From NCBI GenBank assembly GCA_963727715.1, contig CAVSGX010000004.1, positions 82,582 through 146,581 of the forward strand: a stretch of DNA of 64,000 nucleotides, in the 5' to 3' direction. How positions within the stretch are numbered: the stretch's first letter is position 1; every line of letters begins with the position of its first letter. This stretch comes from an uncultured bacterium (lineage in GTDB: Bacteria; Patescibacteriota; Minisyncoccia; Phycocordibacterales; DATDWN01). The notes below the pieces were generated by a model that was not told the origin of the DNA, searched no databases, and saw only the letters and a program-made list of their open reading frames with translations. Below, in pieces: positions 1 to 40,619 of this stretch. The position numbers and the translations under genes are program-made.

Positions 1-2495
<2,495 letters not shown>

Positions 2496-2978: not shown

Positions 2979-3138
2979 CCCAGCTGAATAATATTTTTTT
3001 GGAGACGTTCACCCGGCCGGCGCCGGACTCGCTCGGTCCTCGGCTCGGATCTGTCAAGAGCCCCCCGTTTTGCTCGGGGTCGTTGACAGAACCTGCTCCT
3101 CGCCTGCGTATGCTCCAAAAAGATATTATTCAGCTGGG
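2979..3138. repeat. Long-hairpin intergenic repeat, family 1, copy 1. Locus-specific perfectly complementary ~25-30 bp arms flank a conserved GC-rich core containing the TGTCAAGAGC...TTGACA inner hairpin.
   Basis: The 5' arm cccagctgaataatatttttttggag is complementary to the 3' arm ctccaaaaagatattattcagctggg. The core is shared with copies at 7898-8070 and 18399-18568. Confidence 0.8.
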
Positions 3139-3209
3139 TTTGTTTAGTGATAGTGGAAAATCAAAAAACTACCCTTGGGTAGTTTTTTGAAGACAAATTT
3201 AAAAGTTTT

Positions 3210-3896
3210 TTAGTGTCTGGTGATATTGTCCTTTACTCTGTGTATGACATCCTTGGCCGCATCCTGACCACCCAAACCGAACGAAAGGCCGAGGGCCAGA
3301 GAAACCGCTACAACAAAACCGGTAAAGAGAGTTTGGATGAAAGCGCCGGCCACGCCCATTTGCGACAAAGCGATGAGAATAGCGAAGATCCAGATCGCCC
3401 ATTTGGCCACCGTGCCAAGAAAATTAGCCGATGAAAGGCCCGCCGTGCGCGAGCTAGCCACGACAATGCGATGCATCACATCGCCGACAACCGCGCCAAC
3501 CAAAAGGATGAGCACAGCGACGATGAGTTGTGGCAAGTAGCCGATGACAACCTGTTGCAGAAAGACAGTCACTTGACTTAAACCAAGCACATCAAAGCTG
3601 GCAATCAAGAAGACGACGATGACAAAATATTCAATAAGCTTGCCTAGAAATTTGCCGGAGTTTAGATTGAGTCCGGCTCGTTTGACTATCTCTTCAAAGC
3701 CGGCTTTCCTCAAAGCTTCGTCAAACTTGATCATCTTCATAAATTTCTCGACGATTCGCTCAAGCAAAACGCCGATAGCCCAGCCGATGCAAAGGATGAC
3801 TAGAGCTACGACCAAACTTGGAATGAATGTGACCACACCAAGCCAAAGCGATTGGAACGAGCTACTTAAAACTGAACCCCATGTGTTTAATATCAT
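3210..3896 (-). CDS. Integral membrane protein with repeated conserved TM-helix motifs (MscS-associated TM_helix-like). Start probably at Met 3896, because the ORF-track start 3926 lies inside the palindromic element.
   Basis: Multiple hydrophobic helices. Two internal repeats: LIEYFVIVVFLIASFDVLGL and VAKWAIWIFAILIALSQMGV. Confidence 0.6.
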   Translation of the reverse strand: MILNTWGSVLSSSFQSLWLGVVTFIPSLVVALVILCIGWAIGVLLERIVEKFMKMIKFDEALRKAGFEEIVKRAGLNLNSGKFLGKLIEYFVIVVFLIASFDVLGLSQVTVFLQQVVIGYLPQLIVAVLILLVGAVVGDVMHRIVVASSRTAGLSSANFLGTVAKWAIWIFAILIALSQMGVAGAFIQTLFTGFVVAVSLALGLSFGLGGQDAAKDVIHRVKDNITRH

Positions 3897-3903
3897 AGTG
3901 ATT

Positions 3904-3976
3904 AATCCGTACACTAACTTTACCATCGCTTCGCCGTATTTTGAAAAAATACAATGGCAAAGTTAGTGTACGGATA
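3904..3976. repeat. Palindromic structured element, family 2, copy 1. About 70 nt, perfect outer stem ccgtacactaacttt..aaagttagtgtacgg and inner hairpin gtattttgaaaaaatac.
   Basis: A second copy with compensatory substitutions lies at 39554-39626, upstream of tuf. Confidence 0.8.
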
Positions 3977-4067
3977 AAATTAGGTGATAATAATTGTTAA
4001 TGACAATATTATAACACCCACGGCCAAAAAGCCTAGGCCGGATATGCACAGGCTGGTTTTTAACTGG

Positions 4068-4655
4068 CTACAGAACCCCGAGCTTATTTACCAGTTTTTT
4101 GTGAGGATAATCCAGAATGTCGCGAATAAGTTTGTCATACATGCCGTTGCGGTAGTTGAAATCTTCGGTTGTGAAGTAAGAATAGCGCAATTCCTTGCCC
4201 ATTTGCGATTCCAGAGTCTTAATGGTATGTCCCAGAGCCGAATTTTTGACATGGTCTCCGACAATTAAAATATCCACGCGACTTTCTGGATTTTGGATAA
4301 AAACACCGGCCACAAGAAGAAGTTTGATCACTCCTATCTTTGAGATTCTATTTATAATCTCCTTTGGCTGAAGCGGATCAATATTTATCAAAAAATTCTG
4401 CAAAGGCAAAAGATAAGTGAACTGACTATTTAGAACAAAACCGGTTTTGTGGGAATTGCGCATCATATGATGTTTGACTAAACAGGCTTTCTGCAAGAGT
4501 TTTAGTTCTCTGCGAACATTGACCAGATTCTCATTTGTCCTTCTGGCGATTTCAGCAGTGTTGAAAACCGTTTCCGGATTGAAAAGAAAAAGTCGCATCA
4601 TCTTGACCTTGGCCTCCGAGCCAAAAAGTTTTGATAGAGTTTCCATGCCCGCCAT
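4068..4655 (-). CDS. Putative winged-helix transcriptional regulator (N-terminal wHTH plus uncharacterised C-terminal domain).
   Basis: The N-terminal segment SKLFGSEAKVKMMRLFLFNPETVFNTAEIARRTNENLVNVRRELKLL resembles ArsR/MarR-type wHTH. Confidence 0.45.
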   Translation of the reverse strand: MAGMETLSKLFGSEAKVKMMRLFLFNPETVFNTAEIARRTNENLVNVRRELKLLQKACLVKHHMMRNSHKTGFVLNSQFTYLLPLQNFLINIDPLQPKEIINRISKIGVIKLLLVAGVFIQNPESRVDILIVGDHVKNSALGHTIKTLESQMGKELRYSYFTTEDFNYRNGMYDKLIRDILDYPHKKLVNKLGVL

Positions 4656-5044
4656 TATACACCCGAGCCACCCAAAAAAGCGACAGTTGACAAAAAAACA
4701 ATATGGTGATTAGATGATGGAGGAGGTTCGTGTGTTTTACATCAAAATGTTTGTCGTCGGACACAATTTATTCAATCCAGATAAATATTTTGGCCCATAC
4801 AATAGCGTACGTAAATGAAGCGATAGAGGACTTGTTAAAAAATGGCTGGATTCAATCAGATTGTTTAGGACGTTATTACTCAAAGAAGGGACTGGGAGTA
4901 ATATTGTTTGGGCGAGAAATGTTTAGGCGAGAAATGCAAGCATCAATTTTTAAGTTTGAAGACATCAAGGATTTTTGACTAAAAACTCGAGTGCCACGCA
5001 CCCGAGCTTTTCTTTTTTATTACACCTTACTTTTTACTCTCTAC

Positions 5045-5527
5045 TTATTTTAGTGTCACTTTGCCACCCGCCGATTCAATATCTTTCTTGACCTTTTCTG
5101 CATCTTCTTTCTTCATCCCCTCTTTGAGCATTGAAGGAGCGGCATCAACCAGATCCTTGGCCTCTTTGAGACCAAGCCCGAGAACCTCTTTGACCACTTT
5201 GATTACGGCAATTTTAGTTGCCCCACCGTCTGTCAGTTCAACATTGAATGTTGTTTTCTCCTCGCCAGCGCCGGCTCCTGGGCCAGCTACTGGGGTAGCC
5301 ACAGCCACGGTGGCCGCGGAGACTCCGAATTTTTCTTCCAAGTGCTTGACCAGTTCATGCAAATCCAAAACTGACATTTTTTCAATAGATTCGACAATTG
5401 TTTTGAATTTTGTCGGGGTTGAAACCCCGACGCCTTCAGGTCGGGACTCCGACTTCAACGTCGGAGCTGTTTTTTCTTCTTTTGCTTCGGTTTTTGCCGG
5501 AGCTGTTGTGTTTGTTGTTTCGTCCAT
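5045..5527 (-). CDS. rplL: Ribosomal protein L7/L12, with an N-terminal extension if the first Met is used.
   Basis: C-terminal domain ...[65 protein letters not shown]-terminal dimerisation helix [21 protein letters not shown]. Confidence 0.9.
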
Positions 5528-5550
5528 GATAATTTTTAATTTTAATAATT

Positions 5551-6039
5551 TTATTCTTTGCTTTTCGCAATTTCACTGAGAGCCATCACAAATCCCTGTA
5601 TCGGCGAGTTTATCAAATTGACAAACTGGGCCTGCAAAGTTTTCATGCCCGGGATCTGAGCAACAGAGACCATTTGGTTTTTATCCATAAATCTCCCCTC
5701 GAAAATTCCACCGACAATCTGGATTTTTTTGTCCAGCTTTTTCTGGAATTCATAAATCTCGCGAGCCGGATCCAAAAGATCCGAACCGAAAACAATGCCG
5801 AGTTCGCCGAGCATTTCCGGGGCCAGACCTTCAATTTTTTGACCTTCCAAAGCTTTTTTGGCCAGAGTTTTTTTGGCTACGGTATAACTGACACCTTTGA
5901 CACGCAGATTTTTTCTAATTTGCGAAGCTTCCGAAACGGATAAACCGTGGAAATTGACAAAAACCACTGAAATTGAGTCTTTGAAGACTTTTTTCAGTTT
6001 ATCGAAAATTTCTGATTTCTTTTGTTTTGATACTGCCAT
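5551..6039 (-). CDS. rplJ: Ribosomal protein L10.
   Basis: Immediately upstream of rplL. Typical L10 length and sequence (…[35 protein letters not shown]…). Confidence 0.9.
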
Positions 6040-6187
6040 TTGTTTTTTGTGTTTTTAACAAATTAAAAATCGACCTGAAGGTCGGGAGAATAGAAGCGAC
6101 ATTATGTCGTCTAAGTCTCGGTAGGGCTTATGATTGCCTACTGTCTTTGACCTTATAAACAGTATGATACTCGGAAATGAAAAAATG

Positions 6188-7597
6188 TCAATTCTCAACA
6201 AAAAGTCCACGAATGAAATTAAAACCGCGAATCGGCCAAGCGAAAATCCTGCTGATAAACCCCGGGCTAGATGTGGCCACAAAAACAGTGGCCGTTTGAC
6301 TGGAATTATTTGTTGCTGGTGGAATTTTGGTCTGTGATTTTGCTAGAGCCGGCGCTGAAATTGATGTTGAATTTTTTGGTATTTCTGCCGAGGCTAATGA
6401 AAACATCTGGGTAGGTATTGTTGTGGTTGAATTTATTTCCGATTGTAGTGAGGCTAATTTCTGACGAACACTTGAAATGCCGGTCAAAATGTCGTTTAGA
6501 TCCCCAATTGAAGTGGTGGAAATTACACTATTTGTTGCGACAATATTTTGACCGGGCAGACTGGCGTAGGTTTGGCCGAGTTGGTTTCTTATTTGCAAAT
6601 CGCCGGAGCCGAAGCCCAGATCAGTCAGATCATCGGCGAAAATAATTTTTTGGCCATCTAGTATTAAGGTGTCTTTAGGGAAAATAAATGACTTATTGGA
6701 CGAACCGAGAAGCCATCCTTCTAGATTTATTTCTGCCCCAGAATTGTTTGCCACTTCCAAACCGCCAGAAACTTTTCGAATGCTGATTTTCGGGTCAACC
6801 ACCAAAACTGTCAGCCGATCCGCGGCCATCTGATCAGAAGCGTTTGCGTTAACCACCACGGAATATTTCCCCGGAAACTTGTAGGCGTGATGAACAAGAC
6901 TGCCCGCATCGGTTGATCCATCGCCAAAAGACCATTCATAGTTGATTGAGTTTGAAATGATACCTTGCGTTTTAACGGGTTTAACAACGAACGTCAGATC
7001 ATTGCCGACAGAAGTCAAACGGTCTCGCCCGCACGATATTTCAAAATCAATTGTTATCTCGTCACTCGGTAAGGAAGCCGGAGAGGAGTTGGCCGACAAA
7101 TTTGAAGTAGTATTATTCTGGTTGTCTGTGCTGGTACTTTGATCTGTTGTGGTAGCGGTAGTTGTGGTTGATGTTTGATCTCCCCCGGGAACAGGTTGGC
7201 CTATGTAAATATGTTGACTTATGGTAGTAATCTGCACTTTAGCTTTGCTCAAAACCACTGCGGTGATGACAAAATCACCAGCTGTGGAATCTTCATAATA
7301 AACAGCGCGATTGGAATCACCGGTAGAGATATAGGCGCTTTTCAGCAGACCTCCAGTGCTGGTCAAAAATTGTCCTGTCGGTGAGGAAGAAGTGAAATCG
7401 AGATATGTCGTTTCGGTCACCGGACTGCTGGACTGCACATTTATTTTGCCAGACATTTGGCCCGCCGGCACACTTTGCGGATCAGTGCTGAAAGTAAATG
7501 AATTGTCCGCAAAAACCACCGACAAAATTGGTAAAAATATAAAAATGGATACAACAAAGAACAAATATTTAAAATTTCTCATATATAAGTTAGACAT
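6188..7597 (-). CDS. Secreted / membrane-anchored surface protein with a PKD-like and a lamin-tail (LTD)-like domain.
   Basis: N-terminal signal/TM segment. WSFGDGSTD...HAYKFPGKYSVVV is a PKD signature. NLEGWLLGSSNKSFIFPKDTLILDGQ is an LTD-like motif. Thr/Ser-rich linker. Confidence 0.6.
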   Translation of the reverse strand: MSNLYMRNFKYLFFVVSIFIFLPILSVVFADNSFTFSTDPQSVPAGQMSGKINVQSSSPVTETTYLDFTSSSPTGQFLTSTGGLLKSAYISTGDSNRAVYYEDSTAGDFVITAVVLSKAKVQITTISQHIYIGQPVPGGDQTSTTTTATTTDQSTSTDNQNNTTSNLSANSSPASLPSDEITIDFEISCGRDRLTSVGNDLTFVVKPVKTQGIISNSINYEWSFGDGSTDAGSLVHHAYKFPGKYSVVVNANASDQMAADRLTVLVVDPKISIRKVSGGLEVANNSGAEINLEGWLLGSSNKSFIFPKDTLILDGQKIIFADDLTDLGFGSGDLQIRNQLGQTYASLPGQNIVATNSVISTTSIGDLNDILTGISSVRQKLASLQSEINSTTTIPTQMFSLASAEIPKNSTSISAPALAKSQTKIPPATNNSSQTATVFVATSSPGFISRIFAWPIRGFNFIRGLFVEN

Positions 7598-7691
7598 TAT
7601 ATACGCTCCTCGGCTCGGAAATAAAATTTGCTAATTTTATTTCACTGGCCATATGTCGTTAATAAAAAATCCATAAAAGCTCAGGTGTCTT

Positions 7692-7850
7692 TTATGGTTC
7701 ATTCGTAGCGGCAGTTTGTATAGCTGGAGCAGTAGGTTTGTTTTTATCCTGATAAGCCCGAAGAGCCGCCACTACAATTAAACTAATAATAATGATGGCT
7801 GCAAAACCAAGCAAAAATTTCAAAAAATCTTTGTCAAAGTATTGCAACAT
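7692..7850 (-). CDS. Small hypothetical membrane protein (52 aa). Not in the ORF track because it is shorter than 60 aa.
   Basis: ATG at 7850; single hydrophobic helix (FLLGFAAIIIISLIVVAAL). Coding status is uncertain. Confidence 0.25.
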   Translation of the reverse strand: MLQYFDKDFLKFLLGFAAIIIISLIVVAALRAYQDKNKPTAPAIQTAATNEP

Positions 7851-7897
7851 AAAAATATTTTAACAAAGAAATTTTTTTGAAGCAATGTTGATAATTA

Positions 7898-8070
7898 TAA
7901 AATCTCGCTTAGCTATTTCCTTTTTGGATACGCTAGTTCGGCCAGCGCCGAACTCGCTCCTGTCCTCGGCCTTGCCTTGTCAAGAGCCCCGTCCAAAAAG
8001 GCGGGGTCTTGACAAGACCATGCTCAAGTCCTGCGGAGTCTCCAAAAAGGAAATAGCTAAGCGAGATTTT
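7898..8070. repeat. Long-hairpin intergenic repeat, family 1, copy 2.
   Basis: The arm aaatctcgcttagctatttcctttttgga is complementary to tccaaaaaggaaatagctaagcgagattt. The core GCGCCGAACTCGCTCCTGTCCTCGGC...TTGTCAAGAGCCCCG..CGGGGTCTTGACAAG is shared with the other copies. Confidence 0.8.
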
Positions 8071-8083
8071 GTTCAGTGATATT

Positions 8084-8797
8084 CTATTGGCTCAAACCGG
8101 CTTTGTATTGGAGAAGTGATGGGTCGTTTGGAATCTTGGTAAGACCTTGGTTGATAATATCCAGAGCTTTAGCCGAGTTCAATTCAATGTTGTGATAAAC
8201 TTGAGCCAATTGAATGTAGAGGTAGGTCTGGGTCGGACCGTTGGCAATAGCTTGCTTGTAATATTTTTCGGCTGTGGTTGTATCTTTCAAAAACCAAGCA
8301 TACAAATCACCCAAGTCACCAAAAGAAATGTAGTTGGTCGGTGAAAGTTTTCCGGCGTATTGCCAAGCGACGATTGTCGCTTGATAATCCCCCGTCATTT
8401 TTCTGTAGATACCTAAATTTATCCAACTGTCAAAATCAGCCGGATTTTTCAAAAGCGCCGTCTGCAAAACAGAAACCTTTTGTTCCACCATTTGCTTTTG
8501 TTCATCCGTCATAGAAACGTTCGGGCCGAAAGAAACTTTGGCCGTCAAATCCGGAATCGGCAAAGGAACATTGTTGGGAACTTGTTCAACTTTAAAATCG
8601 CCGTTACTAGAAATGTTCACACCGGTGTTGCCAATTTCTTTTGTTGTAGTGTTCCCCGTGGTAGTGGTTGATAAGGAAAAATTTGTATTTTCGTTTGGAA
8701 CATTTTTAGATCTTCTATCAAAAGCAATGTATAAAACTAATAAAATTCCAATGATAATAATGCTTATAATAATTTTTTGCGTTTTTGTTAATTTCAT
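8084..8797 (-). CDS. Membrane-anchored TPR-repeat protein.
   Basis: N-terminal TM helix (IIISIIIIGILLVLYIAF), then TPR-like helical repeats (W..lG..Y...gdY..Ai..yq.A). Confidence 0.55.
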   Translation of the reverse strand: MKLTKTQKIIISIIIIGILLVLYIAFDRRSKNVPNENTNFSLSTTTTGNTTTKEIGNTGVNISSNGDFKVEQVPNNVPLPIPDLTAKVSFGPNVSMTDEQKQMVEQKVSVLQTALLKNPADFDSWINLGIYRKMTGDYQATIVAWQYAGKLSPTNYISFGDLGDLYAWFLKDTTTAEKYYKQAIANGPTQTYLYIQLAQVYHNIELNSAKALDIINQGLTKIPNDPSLLQYKAGLSQ

Positions 8798-8825
8798 ATC
8801 GGATATACTAGCATATTTTTATAAA

Positions 8826-8862
8826 ACAAAAAACCAACCCGATTTTGAAGGTTGGTTTTTTG
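8826..8862 (-). terminator. Rho-independent terminator downstream of the 8881-9750 gene. The hairpin is flanked by A- and T-runs, so it could act in both directions.
   Basis: ccaacc-cgattttgaa-ggttgg hairpin followed by ttttttgttttt. Confidence 0.6.
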
Positions 8863-8880
8863 TTTTTATCAAATTTTTAA

Positions 8881-9750
8881 TTAAAGTCCTTTTAGACTGG
8901 CGATTTCATTGGCTTTGGCTCTGGTTTTCGGGCCAAAATTGCCATAACCAACTACTCCCGGCCCGGCTAAACCATATTTGACTTGGAATTTTTGGATAGC
9001 GACTTTGGTGGCCGTGCCAAAATAATTGGTTTCGTGACCCGGCGAGCCGGCGCCTGTGGCGACAATTTGTGTGTCCGGATCCGAATTGAGAATTTTTTGC
9101 AAGTGCAAAACGTCGGCGCTACGGTTACCGACATAAAGGTTTTTAGTAAACACTCCAGAACCGACTACTCCCGTCGTCCCAACACTAGCCATGCCAAGTT
9201 GCGCCCGCAAAGAGTTGACTGTGGCAAGCAACGAGGCAATTTGGGATTGCAGATTAGTTGTTGATGTGTTTGTGTTTGTTGTCACAACCGGTATGTAAGA
9301 AGGTCCGCCTCCACCTCCTCCGCCCGATGCGACTGGTCCGTTGCCCCCGCCAGATGAGGTGGTGGTAGTTGTTGTGGTGTCGCAAGTGCTGGATCCGGGA
9401 GTAACAGTTTCGGTGCCCGAACCATCAGCCGTTGAACCAACAGTCAAGAGTGATTGGGTGGCCGAACATTGATAAGCTATCAGATTCCCGCCAACAGCGG
9501 CCAAAACTTTTCTATCAGGTGACACGACTGTCAAAGTGGAACCGGACGGTAAACTAACTGAAAAACTGGTCGGCCCAATACTGATTGACTGCACAACGTC
9601 ACTGCTTCCGGAAACATCCAGGCTAACTCCACCTACCGAAATCACAGCATCAGTGGTTAGCGTCACATCATTGTATGCCGCCGAAACAATGAACGGCGTC
9701 ATTGCGATACAGACCGCCAGAGATGTCATTAAAAATTTATTTTTACTCAT
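8881..9750 (-). CDS. Secreted protein with a C-terminal peptidoglycan-binding domain (PG_binding_1-like).
   Basis: Signal peptide, then a Thr/Gly-rich region. The C-terminal module ...LYVGNRSADVLHLQKILNSDPDTQIVATGAGSPGHETNYFGTATKVAIQKFQVKYGL is paralogous to the N-terminal module of the 1208-aa protein. Confidence 0.65.
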   Translation of the reverse strand: MSKNKFLMTSLAVCIAMTPFIVSAAYNDVTLTTDAVISVGGVSLDVSGSSDVVQSISIGPTSFSVSLPSGSTLTVVSPDRKVLAAVGGNLIAYQCSATQSLLTVGSTADGSGTETVTPGSSTCDTTTTTTTSSGGGNGPVASGGGGGGGPSYIPVVTTNTNTSTTNLQSQIASLLATVNSLRAQLGMASVGTTGVVGSGVFTKNLYVGNRSADVLHLQKILNSDPDTQIVATGAGSPGHETNYFGTATKVAIQKFQVKYGLAGPGVVGYGNFGPKTRAKANEIASLKGL

Positions 9751-9838
9751 AATTTTACCTAAATTAACTGGTAAAGACTAAATCTTCATTATCCTTTCGA
9801 CCTGAAACAAGGCTGGATAATGAGTTAATTCAGGTTAT

Positions 9839-10477
9839 TTAGTTGCACGCTCCATATCTGACAATCGGAGCAACACCGACAGTTGTTTGCGCAGTGGTTG
9901 ATGCCGCAAATGTCATGTTGAGCAATGTATTTGTGCTGGTGGCGTTGAATTGCAAGCAAAAACCTTGCGTGCCCGAGGATGAAGTAAAGACCGCTGTACT
10001 GGTGGCTGTAGTGCTTTCCATGATAGTGCTTGAAGCATACAGCTGATTGGCAACAGTTAATGTCCTAAGAGATGTTGCCCCAGTAACTCCGAGTGTGCCG
10101 GCTACTGTAGCATTACCGAGAAGGGCAACTACTTGACTTGGCTGACCAATGTTGATGGTGGTAGCTGTGCTTGTGCCGATATTTAGGACACCTGCAGCAG
10201 CTGTATCAAAAGCATAGCCGGCTGGCACAGTAATGTTACCGCTGGTAGCCAGCGTGCTTGAAGCGTTAATTGCGCCAGCGATGGTTAAAGTGCTGTAGCC
10301 AGTAATTGCGCCGGTGACGGCCAATGAACTAGTGGCGTAGATATTGCCACCAGTCAGAACATCGGTGCTTATGGTGGTTGTGGCATAAGCTGCCGCTACT
10401 GTCAGCGACATCCCAATCAAAAAAACAAAAACATAAAAAAGATATCCCTTTCTTAAAAACATAGATTCTAAATCCAT
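9839..10477 (-). CDS. Secreted Thr/Ser/Gly-rich repeat protein (fibre / S-layer-like).
   Basis: Signal peptide followed by low-complexity repeats of the form TGG..A.S.LA.TG. No enzymatic motifs. Confidence 0.45.
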   Translation of the reverse strand: MDLESMFLRKGYLFYVFVFLIGMSLTVAAAYATTTISTDVLTGGNIYATSSLAVTGAITGYSTLTIAGAINASSTLATSGNITVPAGYAFDTAAAGVLNIGTSTATTINIGQPSQVVALLGNATVAGTLGVTGATSLRTLTVANQLYASSTIMESTTATSTAVFTSSSGTQGFCLQFNATSTNTLLNMTFAASTTAQTTVGVAPIVRYGACN

Positions 10478-10658: not shown

Positions 10659-13600
10659 TTAGTTTGATCGAGTCCAGAGCAGACCTGAAGATGGGAGTCC
10701 TACAATACCGTATCCTGTTGTCCAATCGTTTGAACTAAAGACGGATGTAGAGGTTGCATTTGGTGACCATACAAAATTGTATGTCGTGCCTGCACCCACT
10801 CCTGTCGCCGTGCTTGTCGCAGCAGCGGTATCTGCCAACATCTTTGTTACAACTGAACCTCCGTAAGTGCCGGAGATACCCGTTACTGAACCGCGAAGTT
10901 CAAAGTATCGAGTCTGGCCGGCTGGAACTTCCACCGGGTTCGAAGCTGTTCTAAATGTCAAAGTTGTCTTTGAACTGTCCGAGGCACATGTGCTGCCGGC
11001 ATTTGTCGTGTTGACAGTGTCGGAGCCACTTCCCGTACAGATATTTGATGCTGAACTTGTTGCCAAGTTTTCATCAATTTGGCCACCGTTGCTTGTTCCA
11101 CCTTTAGCGAAGTTTCCTGACATAGCTGTGGAATAACCTGAATCAGTGTAGCCAAACAAACCGACATCCCTGACTGTGATAGTTGTGGTAGCCAGAGTGA
11201 ATGTGAACTTGTAGAGACCAGCATCACCATGCGAGTCTGCCGTGATGGCAAATCTCATAAGGTGACCGTCAGCAATACCCGTTGAGGACAATGTGCCGAG
11301 AGTAAATGTTGGAATCGTGTTGAACACTCTGACACCGGCCGAACCTGTGGCCGCGCCGGTTCTGATTGTTGAACCAGATGAAGCGCCAGAACCTTCGGTG
11401 CTACTGAGATCAATCTTGATCAAATCACCTTCCGTACCAGACTGGTTTGTGCCGATGTCGGCCAAGTCAGCCTTGACGGTGATGAGAGTATCAATATTGT
11501 TTTGTAGAACGAGTGGGCTGGAAAGCGTCGAGGTAGCAATTGTGCCGCCACTGGCAAAGGTAGCCGTGCCGAGCAAAGTGGAACCTTGATACAAGTAGAC
11601 TTGTGACAAGTCCCCGGCCACGTTTGAGCTGTTTCCTGCGGCGGTACTTGTCAGAACCAAACCGATTTTATTCAGATTGACACTTTCATTTGTAGCTCGC
11701 AGTTTGATAACAGACATTATCTGACCAGTCGTGCCTCCAGCGGCCAGAGCATAGCCAGGGGATGACGAGTCGATTGAAGCCGACAAAGAACCAGTGCTGG
11801 CAGTCATCAGACCTCCGTTAGCTGTGCCAAACGTAGGTGTAACTGAATTTCCTGATGTGATACCTGTCACAGTGTAATGAGCGGTGTTGGTGTCGTTGGT
11901 AGCATAGTAAGTCGCGTTTGTTGTCGGCGAGCTGGCGATATTGCACTCAAGAGCCAACGTCACGATCGTTCCTTTTGGAACTGTCAACGAATTGTCAAAG
12001 CTGAATGTATGGTATGTCCCGCTTGTCAGCGAGTTTACAACATTTGAACCAGTGTTGAGTTGCGTTTGGCCATTGTTCAAAGTGCAACCAGTGAGGTCGC
12101 CAATTGAACTATTGCCCGCTGTAACTGTTACAGGGAAAGATGACAAGCGAAGATCTTCGCCAGACTGTGAAGCGTCGAGTTGGTAGTTGGCCAAAACGAA
12201 GTTCTGGGCACCACCGACAACGCTTTGGGCTGCTGGTTGAGCTGAAATATTAACAGCGAGAGTAGCGGCCCTGACTGTCATCTGATTCATAGAGATGACT
12301 GTTGTTTGACCTGAAAGACTGACAGTGTTGCCAGTGCTTTGACCGGTAACGTTTGTCCAATCTGTGTAAGGCTCGGTAAAGACATTGACTGTCGTACCAT
12401 TAGCCCAACCTGATGGGAGTTTGCCTTTCAAAGTGTAGACATATCGGCCTACTGGGAAGGTTACTGTGTCTGTGAAGTGAATCACAGCGTAACTTGTCGT
12501 TGATGGTACCACACCGGCGTGCGTAGTACTGCCATCGCCGACAGCGACATCAACTGGGCCAGCCACAACTGCGCCGTTTTGGTCAACAAGCGAAACGCTT
12601 GTGATTTGCGAAGCTGGGGATAACGCACTAGCGACATTACCAATTGTCGAGGAAGTTGCCACAACGAAGTACATGCTCTGAATGGAAACTGGTTCACCAG
12701 CAAAGTTTGTAGCAAAACCGCCGAGTACCTGATTAGGTACATTGACAGCAAGGTTTTGTGAAGCCACTTCATTGGCCTTACCAATAAGAGTAACTGAACC
12801 GGCAGTAATGCTGGCCTGTGAACCTTCAAACCAAGGATTGCTTGATGTGTTGATTACAGTGGCATGATTGGCTAGTGTCAGAACAACCCCAGTTCCTACT
12901 GGAGCTGTAATGCCATAGCCGTATGTGTTGCCGACTAAGTATAAGTCTGTGTTTTTATAGACATCGAATTCTGCTGTGCGGCCAGATGAATTGGAGCCGA
13001 CAATGTCGCCTTGGATGTACATATCAACTGAATTTCCTTTGGTGATAACAATACCGCCAGGGAAAACTGTTGAGTAATACTTTCCGGTTGCGTCAACCAC
13101 TGTCGGATATGATGTGCCGTTAACCACGGTCACAACATTGGCCAAGTCGCCTGAACCGACTGAACCAGTCTGATTCCAGCTGATTGACTTGAGTGTCAAG
13201 TCTTCGGCTGAACCAGCGGTCACTTTGAAACCGCTGAAACGATAGCCTGTTGTGCCGATTGGCTCGCTGGCTCCGTTGTTAGGGTCAAAAGAAGATGTGT
13301 TGATTGTGGCTGAACCGAGAGTAAGTGAAGCGTTGATCGTCTGCTGTGCTCCGGTGATAGGCAGAGAACCAGCCACTGTTGCGGAAGTGTTGACTGCCAC
13401 AACATTTAGACTGGCGACCTGACCGGCATAGTTTGTAAGTGATGATGCCATGTTGCCAGCCACTGTGAATGTCTCAGATGTGCCGGCTTTGATGACAAAT
13501 GGATTACCAATAACTGCTTGATGATTTGAGTTCAAAGTCTTGGCAATACCAACTTGCATTCCTGTTGGGTCAACCAAGACGATACCAGCGAAGACAGCGT

Positions 13601-14285
13601 CCTGTGCTAAACCACTTCTCTGAACTGTGATGGAGTTAACCGTCACATCAGATGCCCCAGCTGTCAAAGTGACAGTTGTGAATGGAACACGATTAGCGCT
13701 TTGAGGGGCCAATGAATTCATTGGTTGAACACCGGCCATAACTGTCAAATTGCCACCTGTTGGCATATTTGCTGTGGTGGTAGCGTACCTGTAGTCTGTG
13801 GTTGTAGTTGTAGTTGTGTTTGTTGTGCCACACATCGCGTTGAGCTTAGCTCGTGTGATAGCACCGACATAACCTGCTACCGGTGAAATACCATTGGCTG
13901 TCTGGAATTTCATCACCGCAGCTTTTGTCATCGGACCGAAGGTTGATGTTTCCATCCCCGGTGATCCCGCGCCTGTTGCGGCAACTTGTGTGGCAGCACT
14001 CTGGTTCAGAACTTTTTGCAAATTCATCACATCAGTGCCTTTGCTACCGACAGTCAAGTTTGTGTTGAATGTGTAGCATGTGCCTGTGGTAGCTGTGCTA
14101 CCAGTTGCGGCTGAAAGTTGAGCCTGAAGCGACTGAATTGTCGCCATCAAACTGTTGATCTGGGCTTGTATGTCAGCTGCTGTAGCGGCGCCCGCAATCA
14201 TAGGTGCGAAAGCGACTGCCATCATGGCAACTCCTACAAAACCAGTAACCAACTTTACAGCTGTTGATTTTGTTAAATTCTTCAT
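10659..14285 (-). CDS. Giant (1208 aa) cell-surface protein. Signal peptide, coiled-coil, PG-binding domain, then a long Thr/Ser-rich region with probable Ig-like repeats.
   Basis: N-terminal MKNLTKSTAVKLVTGFVGVAMMAVAFAPMIAGA. The segment ADIQAQINSLMATIQSLQAQLSAA plus the PG-binding motif (GTDVMNLQKVLNQ...GAGSPGMETSTFGPMTKAAVMKFQ). The rest is extremely T/S/G/N-rich. Confidence 0.7.
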   Translation of the reverse strand: MKNLTKSTAVKLVTGFVGVAMMAVAFAPMIAGAATAADIQAQINSLMATIQSLQAQLSAATGSTATTGTCYTFNTNLTVGSKGTDVMNLQKVLNQSAATQVAATGAGSPGMETSTFGPMTKAAVMKFQTANGISPVAGYVGAITRAKLNAMCGTTNTTTTTTTDYRYATTTANMPTGGNLTVMAGVQPMNSLAPQSANRVPFTTVTLTAGASDVTVNSITVQRSGLAQDAVFAGIVLVDPTGMQVGIAKTLNSNHQAVIGNPFVIKAGTSETFTVAGNMASSLTNYAGQVASLNVVAVNTSATVAGSLPITGAQQTINASLTLGSATINTSSFDPNNGASEPIGTTGYRFSGFKVTAGSAEDLTLKSISWNQTGSVGSGDLANVVTVVNGTSYPTVVDATGKYYSTVFPGGIVITKGNSVDMYIQGDIVGSNSSGRTAEFDVYKNTDLYLVGNTYGYGITAPVGTGVVLTLANHATVINTSSNPWFEGSQASITAGSVTLIGKANEVASQNLAVNVPNQVLGGFATNFAGEPVSIQSMYFVVATSSTIGNVASALSPASQITSVSLVDQNGAVVAGPVDVAVGDGSTTHAGVVPSTTSYAVIHFTDTVTFPVGRYVYTLKGKLPSGWANGTTVNVFTEPYTDWTNVTGQSTGNTVSLSGQTTVISMNQMTVRAATLAVNISAQPAAQSVVGGAQNFVLANYQLDASQSGEDLRLSSFPVTVTAGNSSIGDLTGCTLNNGQTQLNTGSNVVNSLTSGTYHTFSFDNSLTVPKGTIVTLALECNIASSPTTNATYYATNDTNTAHYTVTGITSGNSVTPTFGTANGGLMTASTGSLSASIDSSSPGYALAAGGTTGQIMSVIKLRATNESVNLNKIGLVLTSTAAGNSSNVAGDLSQVYLYQGSTLLGTATFASGGTIATSTLSSPLVLQNNIDTLITVKADLADIGTNQSGTEGDLIKIDLSSTEGSGASSGSTIRTGAATGSAGVRVFNTIPTFTLGTLSSTGIADGHLMRFAITADSHGDAGLYKFTFTLATTTITVRDVGLFGYTDSGYSTAMSGNFAKGGTSNGGQIDENLATSSASNICTGSGSDTVNTTNAGSTCASDSSKTTLTFRTASNPVEVPAGQTRYFELRGSVTGISGTYGGSVVTKMLADTAAATSTATGVGAGTTYNFVWSPNATSTSVFSSNDWTTGYGIVGLPSSGLLWTRSN

Positions 14286-14894
14286 ATATATGTTTTTAAT
14301 AATGAAATAATTCCTCCGGCAATTACTAATAATTTTTTAATGGCGCCGAAAAAATTACTTTTTGCAAAACAATTAACTGCTAATGTTTATCGCGGTTCAT
14401 ACACATACAAATTTTTGTACGTGTAACTCGCGCGTCATACTAATTTTTCTCGCTTTATATTTAATCCAGCTCCACTTTTGAAACAATGTTTTACAAACCA
14501 CTTTGACATTCCGTCAAAAGTGGGGCTGGACAAATCGACACAAAACGGAAAAATAGTTGGAAAGGTTTGGACCGAAAAACAACCTTTAAATCTTGGTTGG
14601 ATAAAGTCACGCGGAAAAACAAACAAATTTACACCAAAAGACTCTATGCAGTTGTCAAAGTACTGCTCCCAGACATTATATATTCTTCCCGCGATACTAA
14701 CAAACGCGGTCGTGTGGATAACTTAGAATATACGCCCATAATATACGATAAAAGTCGCATAAATGGCTCAAGACTAAACCTGATCCACATAGGAGAAGTA
14801 TCGCAAAAATGGGTTCAAAAGTCAATATATTGACATTTATTGACATTAAGGGGCCAAATTGATGTCAATTCTACAATGGAAATTCGTTGGCAAA

Positions 14895-15662
14895 TCAAAC
14901 AGCCAAAGAATATCTGCTCCATCTCCTTTCCCCCTTTTTTGTTATAACCCCGCTTTCAATTAGGGAAATAAGCTCACGTTGTATTGTCTTTTCACTGCAA
15001 TCTCTTATGGTTTGGGCTATGTCCTTAATATTCATTTCTTTCCCTTTTTTCAGAAGACCAATTATAATATTTTGCCTATTTGTCTTTTTAAACATAAATT
15101 GGTTGTTTTCTCCCAATTTTTTGTCTTTTATGAGAGTTGGTGAATTCGCCACTCTTATGTTCTCTTTACCGTACTCGAAATTGAAAGAGCCACGCGAAAT
15201 TTCGAAAAAAGATTTTGGAAAAATTTTACTGGGAGAATTTTCGCTGGTTGATTTAACTTCGTCCAAAACCCTAGCTAAATTAAGAAATTCCTCTTGGAGA
15301 ATAGTAAAATTCATAACAGATACCAAACTGGATTTAGAAGCCACTTCAAACAAAGAAATAATATTCAAAATTTGGTTTTTGGTATCGTCAACAAATGTTT
15401 GTTGGGGAACTGAATTTTTACATCCTAAAATAAAAGACAGTAATTCAGAGACTTTTTTACGAAGAACCCACTTTAAAGACTCGTTGTCAGAAAACAAATT
15501 GGTCACCATATATGTCGCAGTAGCCAATTTTTCTGTCTTTTTGTAGACAAAGATAAAATATTCATCTTTCTCAAAAAATGAGATGTGGTCAATGTTTTTA
15601 TTGAAACCGGTAGAAAGATTGTTTTGGGTTGGTTCTATTTTATTGTCTTTTTGTGGTTCCAT
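14895..15662 (-). CDS. Hypothetical protein with a C-terminal winged-HTH DNA-binding domain.
   Basis: The C-terminal segment NIKDIAQTIRDCSEKTIQRELISLIESGVITKKGERRWSRYSL resembles DeoR/HTH_11-type wHTH. Confidence 0.5.
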   Translation of the reverse strand: MEPQKDNKIEPTQNNLSTGFNKNIDHISFFEKDEYFIFVYKKTEKLATATYMVTNLFSDNESLKWVLRKKVSELLSFILGCKNSVPQQTFVDDTKNQILNIISLFEVASKSSLVSVMNFTILQEEFLNLARVLDEVKSTSENSPSKIFPKSFFEISRGSFNFEYGKENIRVANSPTLIKDKKLGENNQFMFKKTNRQNIIIGLLKKGKEMNIKDIAQTIRDCSEKTIQRELISLIESGVITKKGERRWSRYSLAV

Positions 15663-15815
15663 AATGTCTTATATTATGACTTTTAGTTTGTAGATTCTGT
15701 CTTTAATTGTCTTTTATTGTATCATGTGTCTTTTTGATTTACAAGTGCCTGTCCATTATACTACTTAAGGACAGATGGGCAAGAGGTTTCGTAATTCAGA
15801 AAATTTTGTTAAAAT

Positions 15816-18038
15816 GTGCATATGACTAAAACTGATAAGAAAAAGAAAGAGAAAAAAAATAATGATGGGGAAACAACTGTTCCAAACCATATTCAAAAAG
15901 AAACGGCTCAAGCCATTTTAGCTATTCTATTTTTTGTTTTGGCCATCTTTTTTATTCTCTCATCACCGGAAATCTTTGGAGGAATTGGTGTGGCCGGACC
16001 GGCCGGAGAAATAATTTTTAAGATCTTTTCTTTTCTTTTCGGCAAAGGTTATTATCTCTTGCCTATTCTTTTTTTTATCCTTTCTATTTCTTTCTTCAGA
16101 ACACTACGGAAAAAATTGGCTCTGACCCACACTGTCGGCGGGTTGCTTTTCTTTTTATCTTCCCTGTCTATTGTCGATATATTATTCCCCGGTTCCGGTG
16201 GGCTTATAGGAGGATTTGTTTCCAAACCGCTTTTATCTCTTTTTGCTCTCTATATTAGTTTGATTATCTTGTTGGCCTGCATTGTTATTTCTTTTCTGAT
16301 TATGTTTGACACACCGCTTCGACTTTCTTTTCTTACCAACTTATTCAGGAAAAAAATCTCTGATGAGCTTGATGACAGTGATTTGATTATTGCTCAAACA
16401 GGCCAAATGGAAACTCCGGCAGAAGATAATTCCCAAGATAAAAATCAAACCGAGGATGAAAAGGGTGGAACAAAAAAAATGTTTGGTGGAGAGAAAAAAG
16501 AGGAGTTTGTGATGAATAATATATCTTGGGGTAGCAAAGAATTCACTCCCCCACCACTATCACTTCTTGAAAGAGACCGGGGCAGACCGGGAGTTGGCGA
16601 CATTAAAGCCAATTCCAACATCATCAAACGCACTCTTTCCAATTTCGGCATCAATGTGGAAATGGATGAGATTTCTATTGGACCATCCATCACTCGTTAT
16701 GCTTTAAAACCGGCTGAAGGAGTTAAACTCTCTCGCATTGTTGGTCTGCAAAATGACCTGTCATTGGCTTTGGCCGCCCACCCTATCCGCATAGAGGCAC
16801 CGATCCCCGGTAAATCGCTTGTCGGTATTGAAATCCCGAATAGTATTAAAACCACTGTCGGTTTAGGGTCTCTCTTGTCCGCCACCGAATTTCAAAATTC
16901 GGATAAACCTCTTCTCATTTGTTTGGGTAAAGGTATTTCCGGGGTGTCTTATTTTGCCAATCTAGCCAAATCCCCTCACCTCCTCATCGCCGGAGCAACC
17001 GGCTCGGGCAAATCTGTGACTATTCATACCATCATCACCTCTCTTCTTTACCGCAATTCACCGGCCAATTTGAAATTTATCATGGTTGACCCGAAACGAG
17101 TCGAATTGACCATGTACAATAATATCCCTCACTTACTAACACCCGTTGTGACTGACGCCAAGAAAACCATCTTGGCTTTGAAATGGGCAGCTAAAGAAAT
17201 GGATCGACGCTATGATATTCTACAGGCGGAAAGCTTGCAGAACGTAGAGTCATACCACAAAAATGTGGTTGAACCGGAAATGAAAAAGATGAGAAACAGA
17301 AAATCTGGTGAGCAGCCGGAAAAACAAATTGAGACGATGCCGTACATTATTATTGTCATTGATGAGTTGGCTGATATTATGACCGCTTATCCGCGCGAGC
17401 TTGAGGCGGCCATCGTTCGCTTGGCCCAAATGTCTCGCGCCGTTGGCATTCATCTTATACTTTCCACCCAGCGCCCTTCGGTTAATGTCATCACAGGCCT
17501 GATCAAAGCCAACATTCCTTCGCGCATCGCTTTGCAAGTTTCTTCGCAAATTGACTCGCGAACCATTTTGGATATGTCTGGCGCCGAGAAACTTTTGGGC
17601 GCAGGGGATATGCTTTACCTTTCTGGCGAGATGTCCCAACCGCAACGCATTCAGTCAGCTTACATTTCCGAATCTGAAGTCAAAGCGGTAGTTAAATATT
17701 TAGTGGACAGTTATGAAAACGAGGTGCCGAACGAAATAAACCTGACTGGCAATGTTGAGAAAAATCCGATTTTTGACGCAAACATAAATATGGATGAGGA
17801 AAAACTGGAAGAAGATGATGAACTTTATGAGGAAGCCAGGCAAACAGTTATTTCGGCTGGCAAGGCTTCTACATCGTACCTGCAACGAAAACTCGGTGTC
17901 GGCTATGCTCGCGCCGCTCGTTTGATTGATATTTTGGAAGAACGCGGTGTTGTCGGTCCTGGCAGTGGCGCCAAACCAAGAGAAGTGTTGGGAAAAGCCG
18001 AGGATACTAATACCGATACTGCTGAAAATCAAATATAG
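15816..18038 (+). CDS. ftsK: DNA translocase FtsK/SpoIIIE.
   Basis: N-terminal TM helices. Walker A LIAGATGSGKSV. C-terminal gamma (wHTH) domain YEEARQTVISAGKASTSYLQRKLGVGYARAARLIDILEERGVVG. Confidence 0.95.
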   Translation: MHMTKTDKKKKEKKNNDGETTVPNHIQKETAQAILAILFFVLAIFFILSSPEIFGGIGVAGPAGEIIFKIFSFLFGKGYYLLPILFFILSISFFRTLRKKLALTHTVGGLLFFLSSLSIVDILFPGSGGLIGGFVSKPLLSLFALYISLIILLACIVISFLIMFDTPLRLSFLTNLFRKKISDELDDSDLIIAQTGQMETPAEDNSQDKNQTEDEKGGTKKMFGGEKKEEFVMNNISWGSKEFTPPPLSLLERDRGRPGVGDIKANSNIIKRTLSNFGINVEMDEISIGPSITRYALKPAEGVKLSRIVGLQNDLSLALAAHPIRIEAPIPGKSLVGIEIPNSIKTTVGLGSLLSATEFQNSDKPLLICLGKGISGVSYFANLAKSPHLLIAGATGSGKSVTIHTIITSLLYRNSPANLKFIMVDPKRVELTMYNNIPHLLTPVVTDAKKTILALKWAAKEMDRRYDILQAESLQNVESYHKNVVEPEMKKMRNRKSGEQPEKQIETMPYIIIVIDELADIMTAYPRELEAAIVRLAQMSRAVGIHLILSTQRPSVNVITGLIKANIPSRIALQVSSQIDSRTILDMSGAEKLLGAGDMLYLSGEMSQPQRIQSAYISESEVKAVVKYLVDSYENEVPNEINLTGNVEKNPIFDANINMDEEKLEEDDELYEEARQTVISAGKASTSYLQRKLGVGYARAARLIDILEERGVVGPGSGAKPREVLGKAEDTNTDTAENQI

Positions 18039-18040
18039 TT

Positions 18041-18394
18041 ATGAACCGCAATGCTATATCAATCTTAAAAATCTGCGCCCTATCACTTTTAGTTGTGGTT
18101 ATCGCCGGCTATTCCCTTTTTCAAGCCCAGAAACTTTTAGCTGGACCGGTCATTCAAATTTTCACTCCTCAAAACGGAGCTACATATAGTCAAACTCTAA
18201 TCGAAATAGATGGCCAAGCCAAAAATATCGCTTACATAAATTTGAATGACAAACAAATGTTCACCGATAAGAACGGAAACTTTAGCGAGAAACTTTTGCT
18301 CTCACCTGGCTATAATGTAGTCAAGCTCGACGCTTGGGATAAATTCGGCAAGCAAACTGAAAAAAAATTGCAGTTGGTGTTGAAAGAATATTAG
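18041..18394 (+). CDS. Hypothetical membrane-anchored / secreted small protein, translationally coupled to ftsK.
   Basis: The start is 3 nt after the ftsK stop. N-terminal hydrophobic helix ICALSLLVVVIAGYSLF. Confidence 0.45.
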   Translation: MNRNAISILKICALSLLVVVIAGYSLFQAQKLLAGPVIQIFTPQNGATYSQTLIEIDGQAKNIAYINLNDKQMFTDKNGNFSEKLLLSPGYNVVKLDAWDKFGKQTEKKLQLVLKEY

Positions 18395-18398
18395 TAAA

Positions 18399-18568
18399 GC
18401 AAACCTCACAAAAACTTTTCCTTTTCGGATACATTTGTCCCGCCAGCGCGGAACTCATTCCTGTCCTCGGCTCGGATTTGTCAATGAGCTTCGCTTCGCT
18501 CAGTCGTTGACAAAACCATGCTCCTCGCCTGCGGAGTCTCCGAAAAGGAAAGTTTTTGTGAGGTTTGC
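18399..18568. repeat. Long-hairpin intergenic repeat, family 1, copy 3.
   Basis: The arm gcaaacctcacaaaaacttttccttttcgga is complementary to tccgaaaaggaaagtttttgtgaggtttgc. The core is conserved with copies 1 and 2. The inner hairpin shows compensatory change (tgtcaatgagc..gctcagtcgttgaca). Confidence 0.8.
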
Positions 18569-18634
18569 TAGTGGTATTTTTAAAATTCAGTATGTTATAA
18601 TATCCACAACTTTTATTAGATTATTTTTATAAAA

Positions 18635-40617: not shown

Positions 40618-40619
40618 AA

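Follow-up and report, generated by a model that had tools for sequence, protein, structure and literature searches.

A 64,000-nt stretch of DNA from an uncultured bacterium of the Patescibacteriota (contig CAVSGX010000004.1 of assembly GCA_963727715.1; hereafter the window) carries four copies, c1–c4, of an intergenic element in which a conserved, branched core is enclosed by a long stem. The element is a folded nucleic acid, the base pairing of which is clearly kept by selection. Judged from sequence, it represents a so far undescribed family of structured palindromes that are interspersed in genomes across the Patescibacteria (the candidate phyla radiation, CPR). Coordinates below are positions in the window, and L-numbers denote homologous stretches.

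Covariation of the Paired Positions

In an alignment of 43 sequences, standard base pairs occupied 94.3% of the cells, versus 68.0% after shuffling. Compensatory pairs were abundant: changes on both sides were found in 34 of the 41 pairs, and cells with such double changes numbered 499, compared with 147 in the shuffled alignment. The covariation score was 0.683, versus 0.183 for shuffled sequences and 0.10–0.18 when the pairing partners were slid. Covariation is strong in all four helices. P1, P2 and P3 covary at nearly every position, with double changes in 6/7 pairs of P2 (helix 3) and 6/6 pairs of P3 (helix 4), and five basal pairs of P4 are invariant. Nothing but the known helices was recovered by mutual information, with no pseudoknot or further covarying pairs. 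A preliminary description of this DNA had taken the compensatory changes in three copies as a sign of selection on a folded RNA or single-stranded DNA (ssDNA). These changes are indeed present in the three copies and were upheld on 43 and 78 homologues, which makes the case for such selection strong on independent sets of homologues.

Copies in the Window and Architecture of the Element

The three copies reported in the preliminary description (c1–c3) exist within approximately 5 nt of the positions given there, all on the + strand (Table 1). The fourth, c4, has the same long-hairpin layout and is assigned by the family covariance model as a diverged member. As determined with a repeat finder, the outer arms measure 31 nt in c1 and 33 nt in c2 (both 97% complementary), and 27 nt in c3 (93% complementary; 35 nt with one bulge). 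The arms, said to be perfectly complementary, are therefore near-perfect. They are separated by 106–118 nt. A GC-rich core of approximately 110 nt is common to c1, c2 and c3, and the TGTCAA/TTGACA stem with its changing tip is as claimed. The arms of c1–c3 are mutually unrelated and have no other match anywhere in the window; the view that they are locus-specific holds for these copies, but not for a subgroup with a conserved internal loop in P1 (see below). Each copy folds as one long hairpin, with minimum free energies of −91.4 (c1), −99.7 (c2) and −80.2 kcal/mol (c3) and z-scores of −9.5, −12.4 and −9.5, respectively; none of 200 shuffled sequences folded as well.

The element measures 140–200 nt and comprises four helices, arranged as a GC-rich three-way-junction core (P2, P3–P4) closed by P1, a Watson-Crick stem of approximately 30 bp. 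On the + strand the consensus order is P1, a short junction, P2, a junction with ..CUCAUUC..GUCCUC, P3, P4, an asymmetric loop, the return strand of P3, a junction and P1. The length of P1 is constrained to approximately 25–35 bp across the family (27–33 bp among the window copies), and in sequence only its innermost 10–12 bp are conserved (yUUUUnnGAG / CUCnnAAAAr), the outer 18–20 bp differing per locus. Pairs 12–14 of the inner P1 are about 80–90% U-A, and the shared inner stem CUUUUnnGAG / CUCnnAAAAG lies inside the longer, locus-specific stem. P2 is a hairpin of 7–12 bp with a covarying stem and the loop C-CNGC-G, P3 consists of GGCC and 4–5 freely covarying pairs, and P4 combines an invariant UUGUCAA/UUGACAA with a bulged G and a variable tip. 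The asymmetric loop after P4 has the consensus (A)ACCAUGCU, and the junction after the P3 return strand, CUGCGGAUGCUC, leads back into P1. Near-invariant across lineages are GUCCUCGGC, UUGUCAA..GUCGUUGACAA, ACCAUGCU and CCUGCGG.

A large subgroup has an asymmetric internal loop (UUUCUCG / CUCAAC) between AAAUCUC and GAGAUUU in the outermost, lower part of P1. Since this loop is conserved in the outermost P1, the arms belong to the element and not to the flanking DNA. Mini forms keep P1, P2 and ..UCUCGGC-UACCC-GCCUGCGAAG.. and are without the distal P3 and P4; a type-B form includes c4 and L043. As such short relatives exist, the full form looks as though a 70-nt domain had been placed in the small P3 hairpin of a mini form, or else the minis are deletions of the full form. 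A small open reading frame (ORF) in the core was rejected for either strand on inspection, with no conserved ATG and a P4 length that varies out of frame. A 66-nt hairpin at 14465–14530, with 25-nt arms that are 84% complementary, contains CUUUUGA...UCAAAAG, which resembles the inner P1, and gives a weak match to the covariance model (16.9 bits); it may be a core-less relative of the family.

In c1–c3 the motif TAYCACT lies 0–3 nt outside the 3' arm of P1, and these three sites are among only 7 occurrences in the window. The motif is also found at the bin-2248 copies (L004, L020, L031, L038) and at L041, L065, L084, L105 and L107, thus in some lineages only, and appears to be a lineage-specific appendix of the element. 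It is not a general promoter motif.

Table 1. Copies of the element, their parts, and other features of the 64,000-nt window.
Feature	Position	Strand	Remarks
c1, full type-A	2974–3143	+	P1 arms 2974–3004 and 3113–3143; core 3005–3112; covariance model 122.4 bits, E 6e-36
c2, full type-A	7899–8070	+	P1 arms 7899–7931 and 8038–8070; covariance model 139.3 bits, E 3e-41
c3, full type-A	18398–18569	+	Sense orientation; covariance model 133.1 bits
c4, diverged type-B	40629–40792	−	Sense orientation; 27-nt arms, 96% complementary; 26.5 bits, E ~8e-6 (whole window)
P2 hairpin of c2	7935–7954	+	8-bp stem, CAGC loop closed by C-G
GUCCUC junction and P3 5' strand (GGCCnnnnn) of c2	7962–7976	+	Junction nearly invariant; P3 partner 8025–8031
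P4 of c2	7977–8015	+	Invariant base UUGUCAA/UUGACAA, bulged G, variable tip
Conserved asymmetric loop (G)ACCAUGCU of c2	8016–8024	+	Directly after P4
Flank motif TAYCACT (+ strand: AGTGRTA)	3144–3152, 8073–8081, 18568–18576	−	Beside 3' arm of P1 in c1, c2, c3
IS30-family transposase ORF	20318–21247		HTH_38
IS30-family transposase ORF	36871–37815		HTH_38 and rve; 19-bp terminal inverted repeats 36839–36857, 37802–37820; between tuf and S10 operon
23S insertion, ORF-less	1427–1662	−	Arms 25 nt, 96% complementary; large-subunit rRNA (LSU) model position ~583
23S insertion, ORF-less	~1992–2238	−	Arms 19 nt, 89% complementary; LSU model position ~285

A Family Spread Through Patescibacteria

A 21-base core pattern was searched over one genome per species (185,579 species), yielding 38 stretches, and pattern matches were confirmed with a covariance model built from the alignment of homologues. 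The model confirmed 36 of the 38, the other two being GC-rich chance matches in non-CPR records; the genome contigs held 43 full copies. The confirmed stretches come from approximately 19 metagenome-assembled genomes (MAGs) labeled Paceibacterota/Parcubacteria, Saccharibacteria, Zambryskiibacteriota, Minisyncoccia or 'Patescibacteria group', and all confirmed copies lie on Patescibacteria-type contigs. One MAG that carries full members is labeled Nitrospira ('Nitrospira sp. isolate SF2_9'; L014, L030, L032). As its contigs show CPR-like synteny (99-aa gene, element, tuf), this bin is probably mis-binned or contaminated with Patescibacteria contigs. Some of the taxonomic labels are doubtful, the flanks of L034 (Saccharibacteria) and L037 (Parcubacteria) being nearly identical. 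The window itself looks patescibacterial, with insertions in its 23S rRNA gene and close protein homologues labeled Paceibacterota or Parcubacteria.

In metagenome contigs the core pattern was found in 73 stretches, in which the model recognized approximately 70 full copies and several short variants. Removal of near-duplicates left 88 distinct full copies. The core, first described from three places, is not confined to them: the search of related genomes revealed a family of more than 100 copies in Patescibacteria. The pattern had no match in viral contigs (IMG/VR). Over the whole window, no Rfam family matched the elements at the gathering threshold (Rfam 15, 4227 families including all known ribozyme classes), and in scans at E ≤ 10 of c1 and the consensus-like L004 all matches touching the element were far below gathering scores. 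This comparison included ribozymes, 5S, signal recognition particle (SRP), 6S, Y RNA, OLE, HEARO and raiA; a likeness to 5S rRNA, SRP or Y RNA was rejected as short chance similarities without Rfam support. No description of the family was found in the searchable literature on CPR non-coding RNAs and repeats, for the conserved strings, or in one recent preprint on intergenic features.

The elements can cluster, as seen from two contigs: the 15.6-kb L092 holds five members within 6.3 kb (1830–8069), and L027 holds two in opposite orientations, at 2932–3068 (+) and 3122–3269 (−), only 53 nt apart in one intergenic region. Local density reaches one element per 1–3 kb. A spacer-like origin of the arms was rejected: 18-mers from the arms match IMG/VR 2–3 times, approximately the estimated chance level, and the matches end at the 18-mer.

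Position at the 3' Ends of Genes

All copies in the window, c4 included, are intergenic, as had been noted for the first three, and among approximately 90 homologous copies those with callable neighbors lie between protein-coding genes. The 3' end of a gene abuts the element in 70 of 87 cases. In 47/84 elements the stop of a co-directional ORF (at least 80 aa) is no more than 15 nt away from the base at which pairing in P1 begins, with a median gap of 5 nt, whereas on the other side an opposite-direction ORF comes that close in only 15 (median 69 nt; Mann-Whitney p = 1.5e-6). Approximately two thirds of the elements are co-oriented with the gene ending beside them, and the composition of the flanks, purine-rich on the + strand, agrees with this co-orientation. 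A replication-strand bias was rejected, as the flank skews (G>C and A>T) fit the coding sense and give no clear leading/lagging signal; a strict bias is also contradicted by adjacent copies in one contig that are oppositely oriented.

The neighbors are housekeeping genes, among them those for L25, RF1, L31, DnaB, several aminoacyl-tRNA synthetases, SecDF and EF-Tu, as well as recA and ftsK. Beyond this conserved housekeeping synteny no gene family recurs within 3 kb of the 88 copies, and sigma-70-like promoters pointing into the element are not enriched from either side.

In the window, P1 of c3 begins 3 nt past the stop codon of a 117-aa gene (18041–18394), and the element is followed by the recA promoter and recA (18635–19711). 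Copy c4 lies upstream of tuf, its P1 beginning 16 nt past the stop codon of a 99-aa gene, and a terminator-like hairpin follows at 40582–40618. The genes that flank c2 run antisense to it, and 13 nt separate its 3' side from the stop codon of a minus-strand TPR gene (8084–8797). Copy c1 is antisense to its minus-strand neighbors and lies between a terminator hairpin (3157–3190) and a strong minus-strand promoter (2933–2906, TTGACA-16-TATACT) upstream of the 23S rRNA gene.

We tentatively favor, at somewhat less than an even chance, the reading that this is an element similar to repetitive extragenic palindromic (REP) sequences, enterobacterial repetitive intergenic consensus (ERIC) sequences and rRNA intervening sequences (IVS), co-transcribed at gene 3' ends and acting in cis as a processing or stabilizing hairpin. 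The element would have no promoter of its own and would be transcribed as the 3' untranslated region or intercistronic spacer of the adjoining gene. Its long P1 duplex, which in many copies includes the asymmetric internal loop, may then be a double-strand-specific processing site, putatively of the RNase III type; a P1 length of approximately 25–35 bp suits a nuclease specific for double-stranded RNA (dsRNA). P1 could at the same time serve as a protective hairpin at the 3' end, separating the fates of neighboring messages, and the conserved core could be a module recognized by a trans-acting factor. Copies would stay long at the same intergenic sites, while their arms would drift approximately neutrally yet remain complementary and their cores would be homogenized or exchanged within the genome, as is partly shown below. 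This cis-acting RNA model builds on analogy with the rRNA intervening sequences of the window, the intercistronic sites of phage T7 and the REP, ERIC and Correia elements.

The same position at gene 3' ends could suggest oversized bidirectional intrinsic terminators, in which an A-tract, a stem and a U-tract enclose a large, inert loop insert. The first five positions of P1 are 50–62% A and the last five 50–60% T, and the subgroup with the internal loop has the base AAAUCUC...GAGAUUUU, as such a terminator might. We nevertheless consider this very improbable. A tract of at least 5 T in 8 nt is found around the stem end in only 24/84 elements, and in the 8 nt after it in 4/84; the base of the stem is AU-rich, where an intrinsic terminator has a GC-rich stem with a U-tract directly after it; and a conserved 110-nt core with three covarying helices would be left unexplained. 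A canonical terminator hairpin precedes c1 and another follows c4, so that these copies are not needed as terminators, and elsewhere the window makes use of short terminators of the ordinary kind. These observations bear out the earlier view that the element is not a simple terminator.

Evolution at Orthologous Sites and Between Paralogues

The spacer between the ftsK–117-aa gene pair and recA contains a family member in 7 of the 8 lineages examined, in full, mini, reversed or other long-hairpin form. Full + elements are present in the window, in L041/L042 (81%; percentages here are the identity of the 117-aa protein to that of the window) and in L065; L045, L047 and L054 have + mini forms, L043 (74%) a reversed type-B mini, and L051 a different long hairpin. 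The site is empty in L052/L053 (Zambryskibacteria, 66%), where the spacer is only 16 nt. The spacer between the 99-aa gene and tuf is occupied in three genomes, with L032 in forward orientation, L017 reversed, and c4 in the window. All occupied sites carry differing variants.

For a trio of orthologues at the recA locus, gapped alignment showed the arms to be 63–79% identical, the core 73–77%, the coding flank 82–84% and the downstream spacer 75–82%, and each arm pair remains complementary. The arms thus drift at a roughly neutral rate, with both sides changing together. An apparent total replacement of the arms between recA-site orthologues was rejected as an artefact of ungapped comparison.

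Within a genome, some cores are 94–97% identical while their arms are 14–36% identical, about random (ELA422: L006, L010, L027; bin-2248: L020, L031, L036). The unit shared by these paralogues is bounded by the T-run and the A-run of the inner P1. The window copies form a mosaic, in which a degenerate P3 is common to c1 and c3, and the tip of P4 to c1 and c2. Gene conversion or a cassette-like exchange of cores between long-resident hairpins would be the simplest reading. In c2 (GCUUAGC/GCUAAGC) and L015 the conserved internal loop of P1 is replaced by perfectly paired 7-mers, the outcome expected if one arm were copied onto the other.

Pairing Asymmetry and the Nature of the Folded Species

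Several observations weigh against a hairpin that acts in the sense transcript. Approximately one third of the copies, including c1 and c2, are antisense to the adjoining gene end; c1, lying between a terminator and a promoter, may barely be transcribed; and orientation differs between genomes at orthologous sites. G.U pairs are rare (28 of ~1750 cells, ~1.6%, in the genome set). Mismatches in P1 on the + strand comprise 40 A.C versus 11 G.U in 86 elements, and in a separately collected metagenome set, from which near-identical rows were removed, the A.C:G.U counts were 29:9 in P1, 17:3 in P2 and 5:2 in P3. Copies between two co-directional genes gave 15 A.C and 0 G.U in a hand tally. In 62 of the 86 elements it is the complementary strand that folds better (mean 4.2 kcal/mol, p = 1e-7), contrary to the prediction from selection on a sense RNA. 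Finally, the cis-acting model leaves the strong sequence conservation of the core unexplained.

On the + strand, A.C thus exceeds G.U approximately 4:1 in P1–P3. As a control of this logic, a G.U on the transcribed strand is the sole mismatch in the 23S insertion at 1427–1662. In folding there is no difference in significance between the two RNA strands and the DNA strand, z being approximately −12 for each. The positional data favor the + strand as sense RNA and the pairing data point the opposite way, so that the two signals conflict. The folded species may be the complementary strand, in the form of RNA or of ssDNA. Alternatively, G/T-specific repair may act on extruded + strand hairpins, or selection may act against perfect dsRNA in the sense transcript.

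With G.U pairs rare, A.C in excess and the complementary strand folding better, a role at the DNA level remains a candidate, possible though unlikely in our estimate. The element would then fold as an ssDNA hairpin or cruciform, at which recombination, transposition or replication would take place or a structure-specific DNA-binding protein would attach; its core would be a cassette that can move or be converted, with the arms kept complementary by intramolecular template switching (quasi-palindrome correction), comparable to REP/RAYT, the ends of IS200/IS605, and attC. Pairing that is almost exclusively Watson-Crick, with perfect arms in 37/86 elements, agrees with this, as do a mismatch asymmetry that misfits a sense RNA and an ssDNA fold as significant as that of RNA (z = −12.6). 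So do the near-identical cores within unrelated arms, the paired 7-mers of c2 and L015, the presence of both orientations at orthologous sites, the antisense copies, and the location of c1 outside obvious transcription units. Breaks within c2 and c3 in a short-read assembly of the organism from which the window comes are likewise in keeping with a DNA-level role. The orientation-specific abutment to stop codons, by contrast, is easier to explain as RNA. No transposase, RAYT/HUH, integrase or reverse transcriptase was found beside the ~90 copies, and the window ORFs scanned with Pfam (almost all of those of at least 150 aa) include no reverse transcriptase, HUH/RAYT or tyrosine recombinase. The preliminary description had found no RAYT, integrase or reverse transcriptase in the window; among the ORFs scanned this stands for RAYT and reverse transcriptase, but not for integrase, as two unrelated IS30-family ORFs with an rve integrase core are present. 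Also at odds with a DNA-level role are the absence from viral contigs, the stability at orthologous sites across genera with gradually diverging arms, and the opposite orientation of adjacent copies, which leaves no strict replication-strand bias. Target-site duplications were not seen in the flanks inspected by eye, without a dedicated test.

The conservation of the core far beyond the need of a cis-acting hairpin brings in a further alternative, in which each copy is a gene for a stable small RNA acting in trans. The core with a P1 stub (~120–150 nt) would be released from a longer transcript by cleavage of P1 and, for example, serve as a scaffold or sponge for proteins or be a self-cleaving or otherwise catalytic RNA, with sibling copies homogenized by gene conversion. 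The conserved unpaired nucleotides of the three-way junction, the freedom of the P1 sequence, as in a processing stem, and the concerted evolution of cores within genomes are consistent with this. The complementary strand has purine-rich junctions and the more stable fold, and the RNA could come from that strand. The alternative is nonetheless improbable. There is no promoter signal on either side, minis without P3–P4 occupy the same orthologous sites, where the full core is thus dispensable, and G.U pairs are in deficit on the + strand. The lack of a match among the 4227 Rfam families, and of a pseudoknot or additional covarying pairs by mutual information, likewise argues against it.

A more far-reaching proposal, which we regard as unlikely, is that the core represents a new, Patescibacteria-specific functional class. 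It could be a catalytic or ribonucleoprotein RNA cut from the variable P1, with the strand complementary to that of the flanking gene as its possible source, or a folded ssDNA site, in which a conserved cassette moves or converts between pre-existing hairpins and the arms are continually re-made complementary by template switching. Were this true, an excised RNA class or a moving ssDNA cassette would be a mechanism without a described counterpart.

Patescibacteria have genomes among the smallest and most streamlined of bacteria, and their non-coding repertoire and RNA processing are almost uncharted. The element is very unlikely to be junk, as it is multi-copy, conserved in sequence across lineages, compensatory in structure, and retained beside recA, tuf and other core genes. 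The family offers a testable handle on the punctuation and processing of transcripts in these organisms, or on a process based on DNA structure. The preponderance of A.C over G.U was not expected and poses a puzzle of its own. The family is also of relevance to metagenome assembly, as contigs break inside the element.

Other Features of the Window

The 23S rRNA gene lies on the minus strand with its 5' end at 2513, and its Rfam match ends at model position 1523 of 2925. A tRNA-Ala(UGC), called at 370–446, overlaps the end of the 23S match (300–446). The 3' half of the 23S either lies beyond a large insertion or is off the window, and the rRNA locus is unusual. The two ORF-less insertions (Table 1) look like RNase III-type intervening sequences at classical IVS sites; the LSU model position of the first (1427–1662) is taken by us to be helix 25. 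A tRNA-Ile with anticodon UAU is located at 57036–57110 on the minus strand. This anticodon is uncommon in bacteria, in which AUA is usually read with a modified CAU anticodon.

A second family of hairpin repeats is present at 3905–3979 and 39555–39629, with 22-bp stems and a 27-nt loop that holds a small hairpin. Its two copies share 88% identity and show compensatory changes; one (3905–3979) extends over the start of an MscS-like gene, and the other (39555–39629) is found just upstream of tuf. An AT-rich repeat with TTAGAAATTAGATTAATTAGAAATT as its building block occurs in direct and inverted copies, 13 kb apart, at 48970–49101 and 62262–62402. Elongation factor G is encoded by two ORFs (44679–46838), one with the GTPase domain (45819–46838) and one with domains III–V (44679–45584). 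A 1120-aa ORF without a Pfam match (41177–44539) has fusA on one side and, on the other, the 99-aa gene that precedes c4. A link of the two IS30-like elements to the hairpin family was rejected, as their 19-bp terminal repeats are unrelated to it.

Comparison With Known Systems

A conserved branched core enclosed by a stem with locus-specific outer 18–20 bp is a combination not described for REP, ERIC, attC, or miniature inverted-repeat transposable elements (MITEs). In its mode of working the element would come closest to intergenic palindromes of the ERIC, REP and Correia type and to rRNA IVS, but it departs from each of these in a defining feature. The preliminary description had found the element unlike REP and bacterial interspersed mosaic elements (BIMEs), attC and retrons, a view that is upheld, with no reverse transcriptase, RAYT or integron integrase nearby. 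The family resembles REP/BIME in forming abundant extragenic palindromes at gene 3' ends with Watson-Crick-only pairing, and REP/BIME are co-transcribed and stabilize the upstream mRNA. REPs, however, are single hairpins of 20–40 nt with a conserved head, are species-specific and are mobilized by the RAYT gene that they flank, whereas the elements described here measure ~170 nt with four helices, have outer arms that are unrelated between copies, and are shared across lineages.

The Correia (NEMIS) MITEs of Neisseria are intergenic, co-transcribed sequences of 100–170 bp, whose terminal inverted repeats form a long RNA hairpin that is cut by RNase III. The inner stem CUUUUnnGAG / CUCnnAAAAG of the family is MITE-like in its resemblance to short terminal inverted repeats. 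MITE copies have terminal repeats in common and are bordered by target-site duplications; in the family each locus has its own outermost stem, and copies are stable at orthologous sites.

As in attC, the element starts right after the preceding stop codon and is usually co-oriented with the gene, and it is an imperfect palindrome in which structure is conserved more than sequence; attC acts as a folded single strand. In attC the outer R and L boxes (R''/R' RYYYAAC / GTTRRRY) are conserved and the center is variable, while the family shows the reverse; it has no GTTRRRY box, integron integrase or cassette array, and its neighbors are essential housekeeping genes. In retrons a reverse transcriptase gene lies immediately downstream of the a1/a2-flanked msr/msd, and no such gene was found among the window ORFs scanned or beside any copy.

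The intervening sequences of 23S rRNA resemble the family as ORF-less structured inserts of 100–250 nt that are closed by a long, nearly perfect stem. Short ORF-less insertions at classical IVS sites have been reported in large number from CPR 23S rRNA genes, and their cleavage by RNase III has been inferred (PMC11270868). Intervening sequences differ in lying inside rRNA helices, from which RNase III removes them, whereas the family is intergenic and follows protein-coding genes; its covariance model does not match the two 23S inserts of the window.

The intercistronic RNase III sites of phage T7 (R1.1 etc.) are hairpins between co-transcribed genes, in which an asymmetric internal loop separates an upper from a lower stem. 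After a single cut, the upstream message ends in a 3' hairpin that protects it. By analogy, the P1 internal loop UUUCUCG/CUCAAC could act like the internal loop of a T7 site, although the latter sites are ~60 nt and have no conserved branched core.

ERIC sequences (intergenic repeat units, IRU) of Enterobacteria are imperfect palindromes of approximately 127–170 bp that occur in many copies per genome, in either orientation, in transcribed intergenic regions. Their sequence is conserved across genera, and they are thought to form RNA hairpins that affect mRNA stability. The family is like ERIC in palindrome size, intergenic location, occurrence in both orientations, copy number and cross-genus conservation of sequence. 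The ERIC palindrome is conserved between copies over its full length, outer arms included; in the family only the core and the inner 10–12 bp are conserved and the outer 18–20 bp are locus-specific, the core is built on a three-way junction, and the hosts are Patescibacteria.

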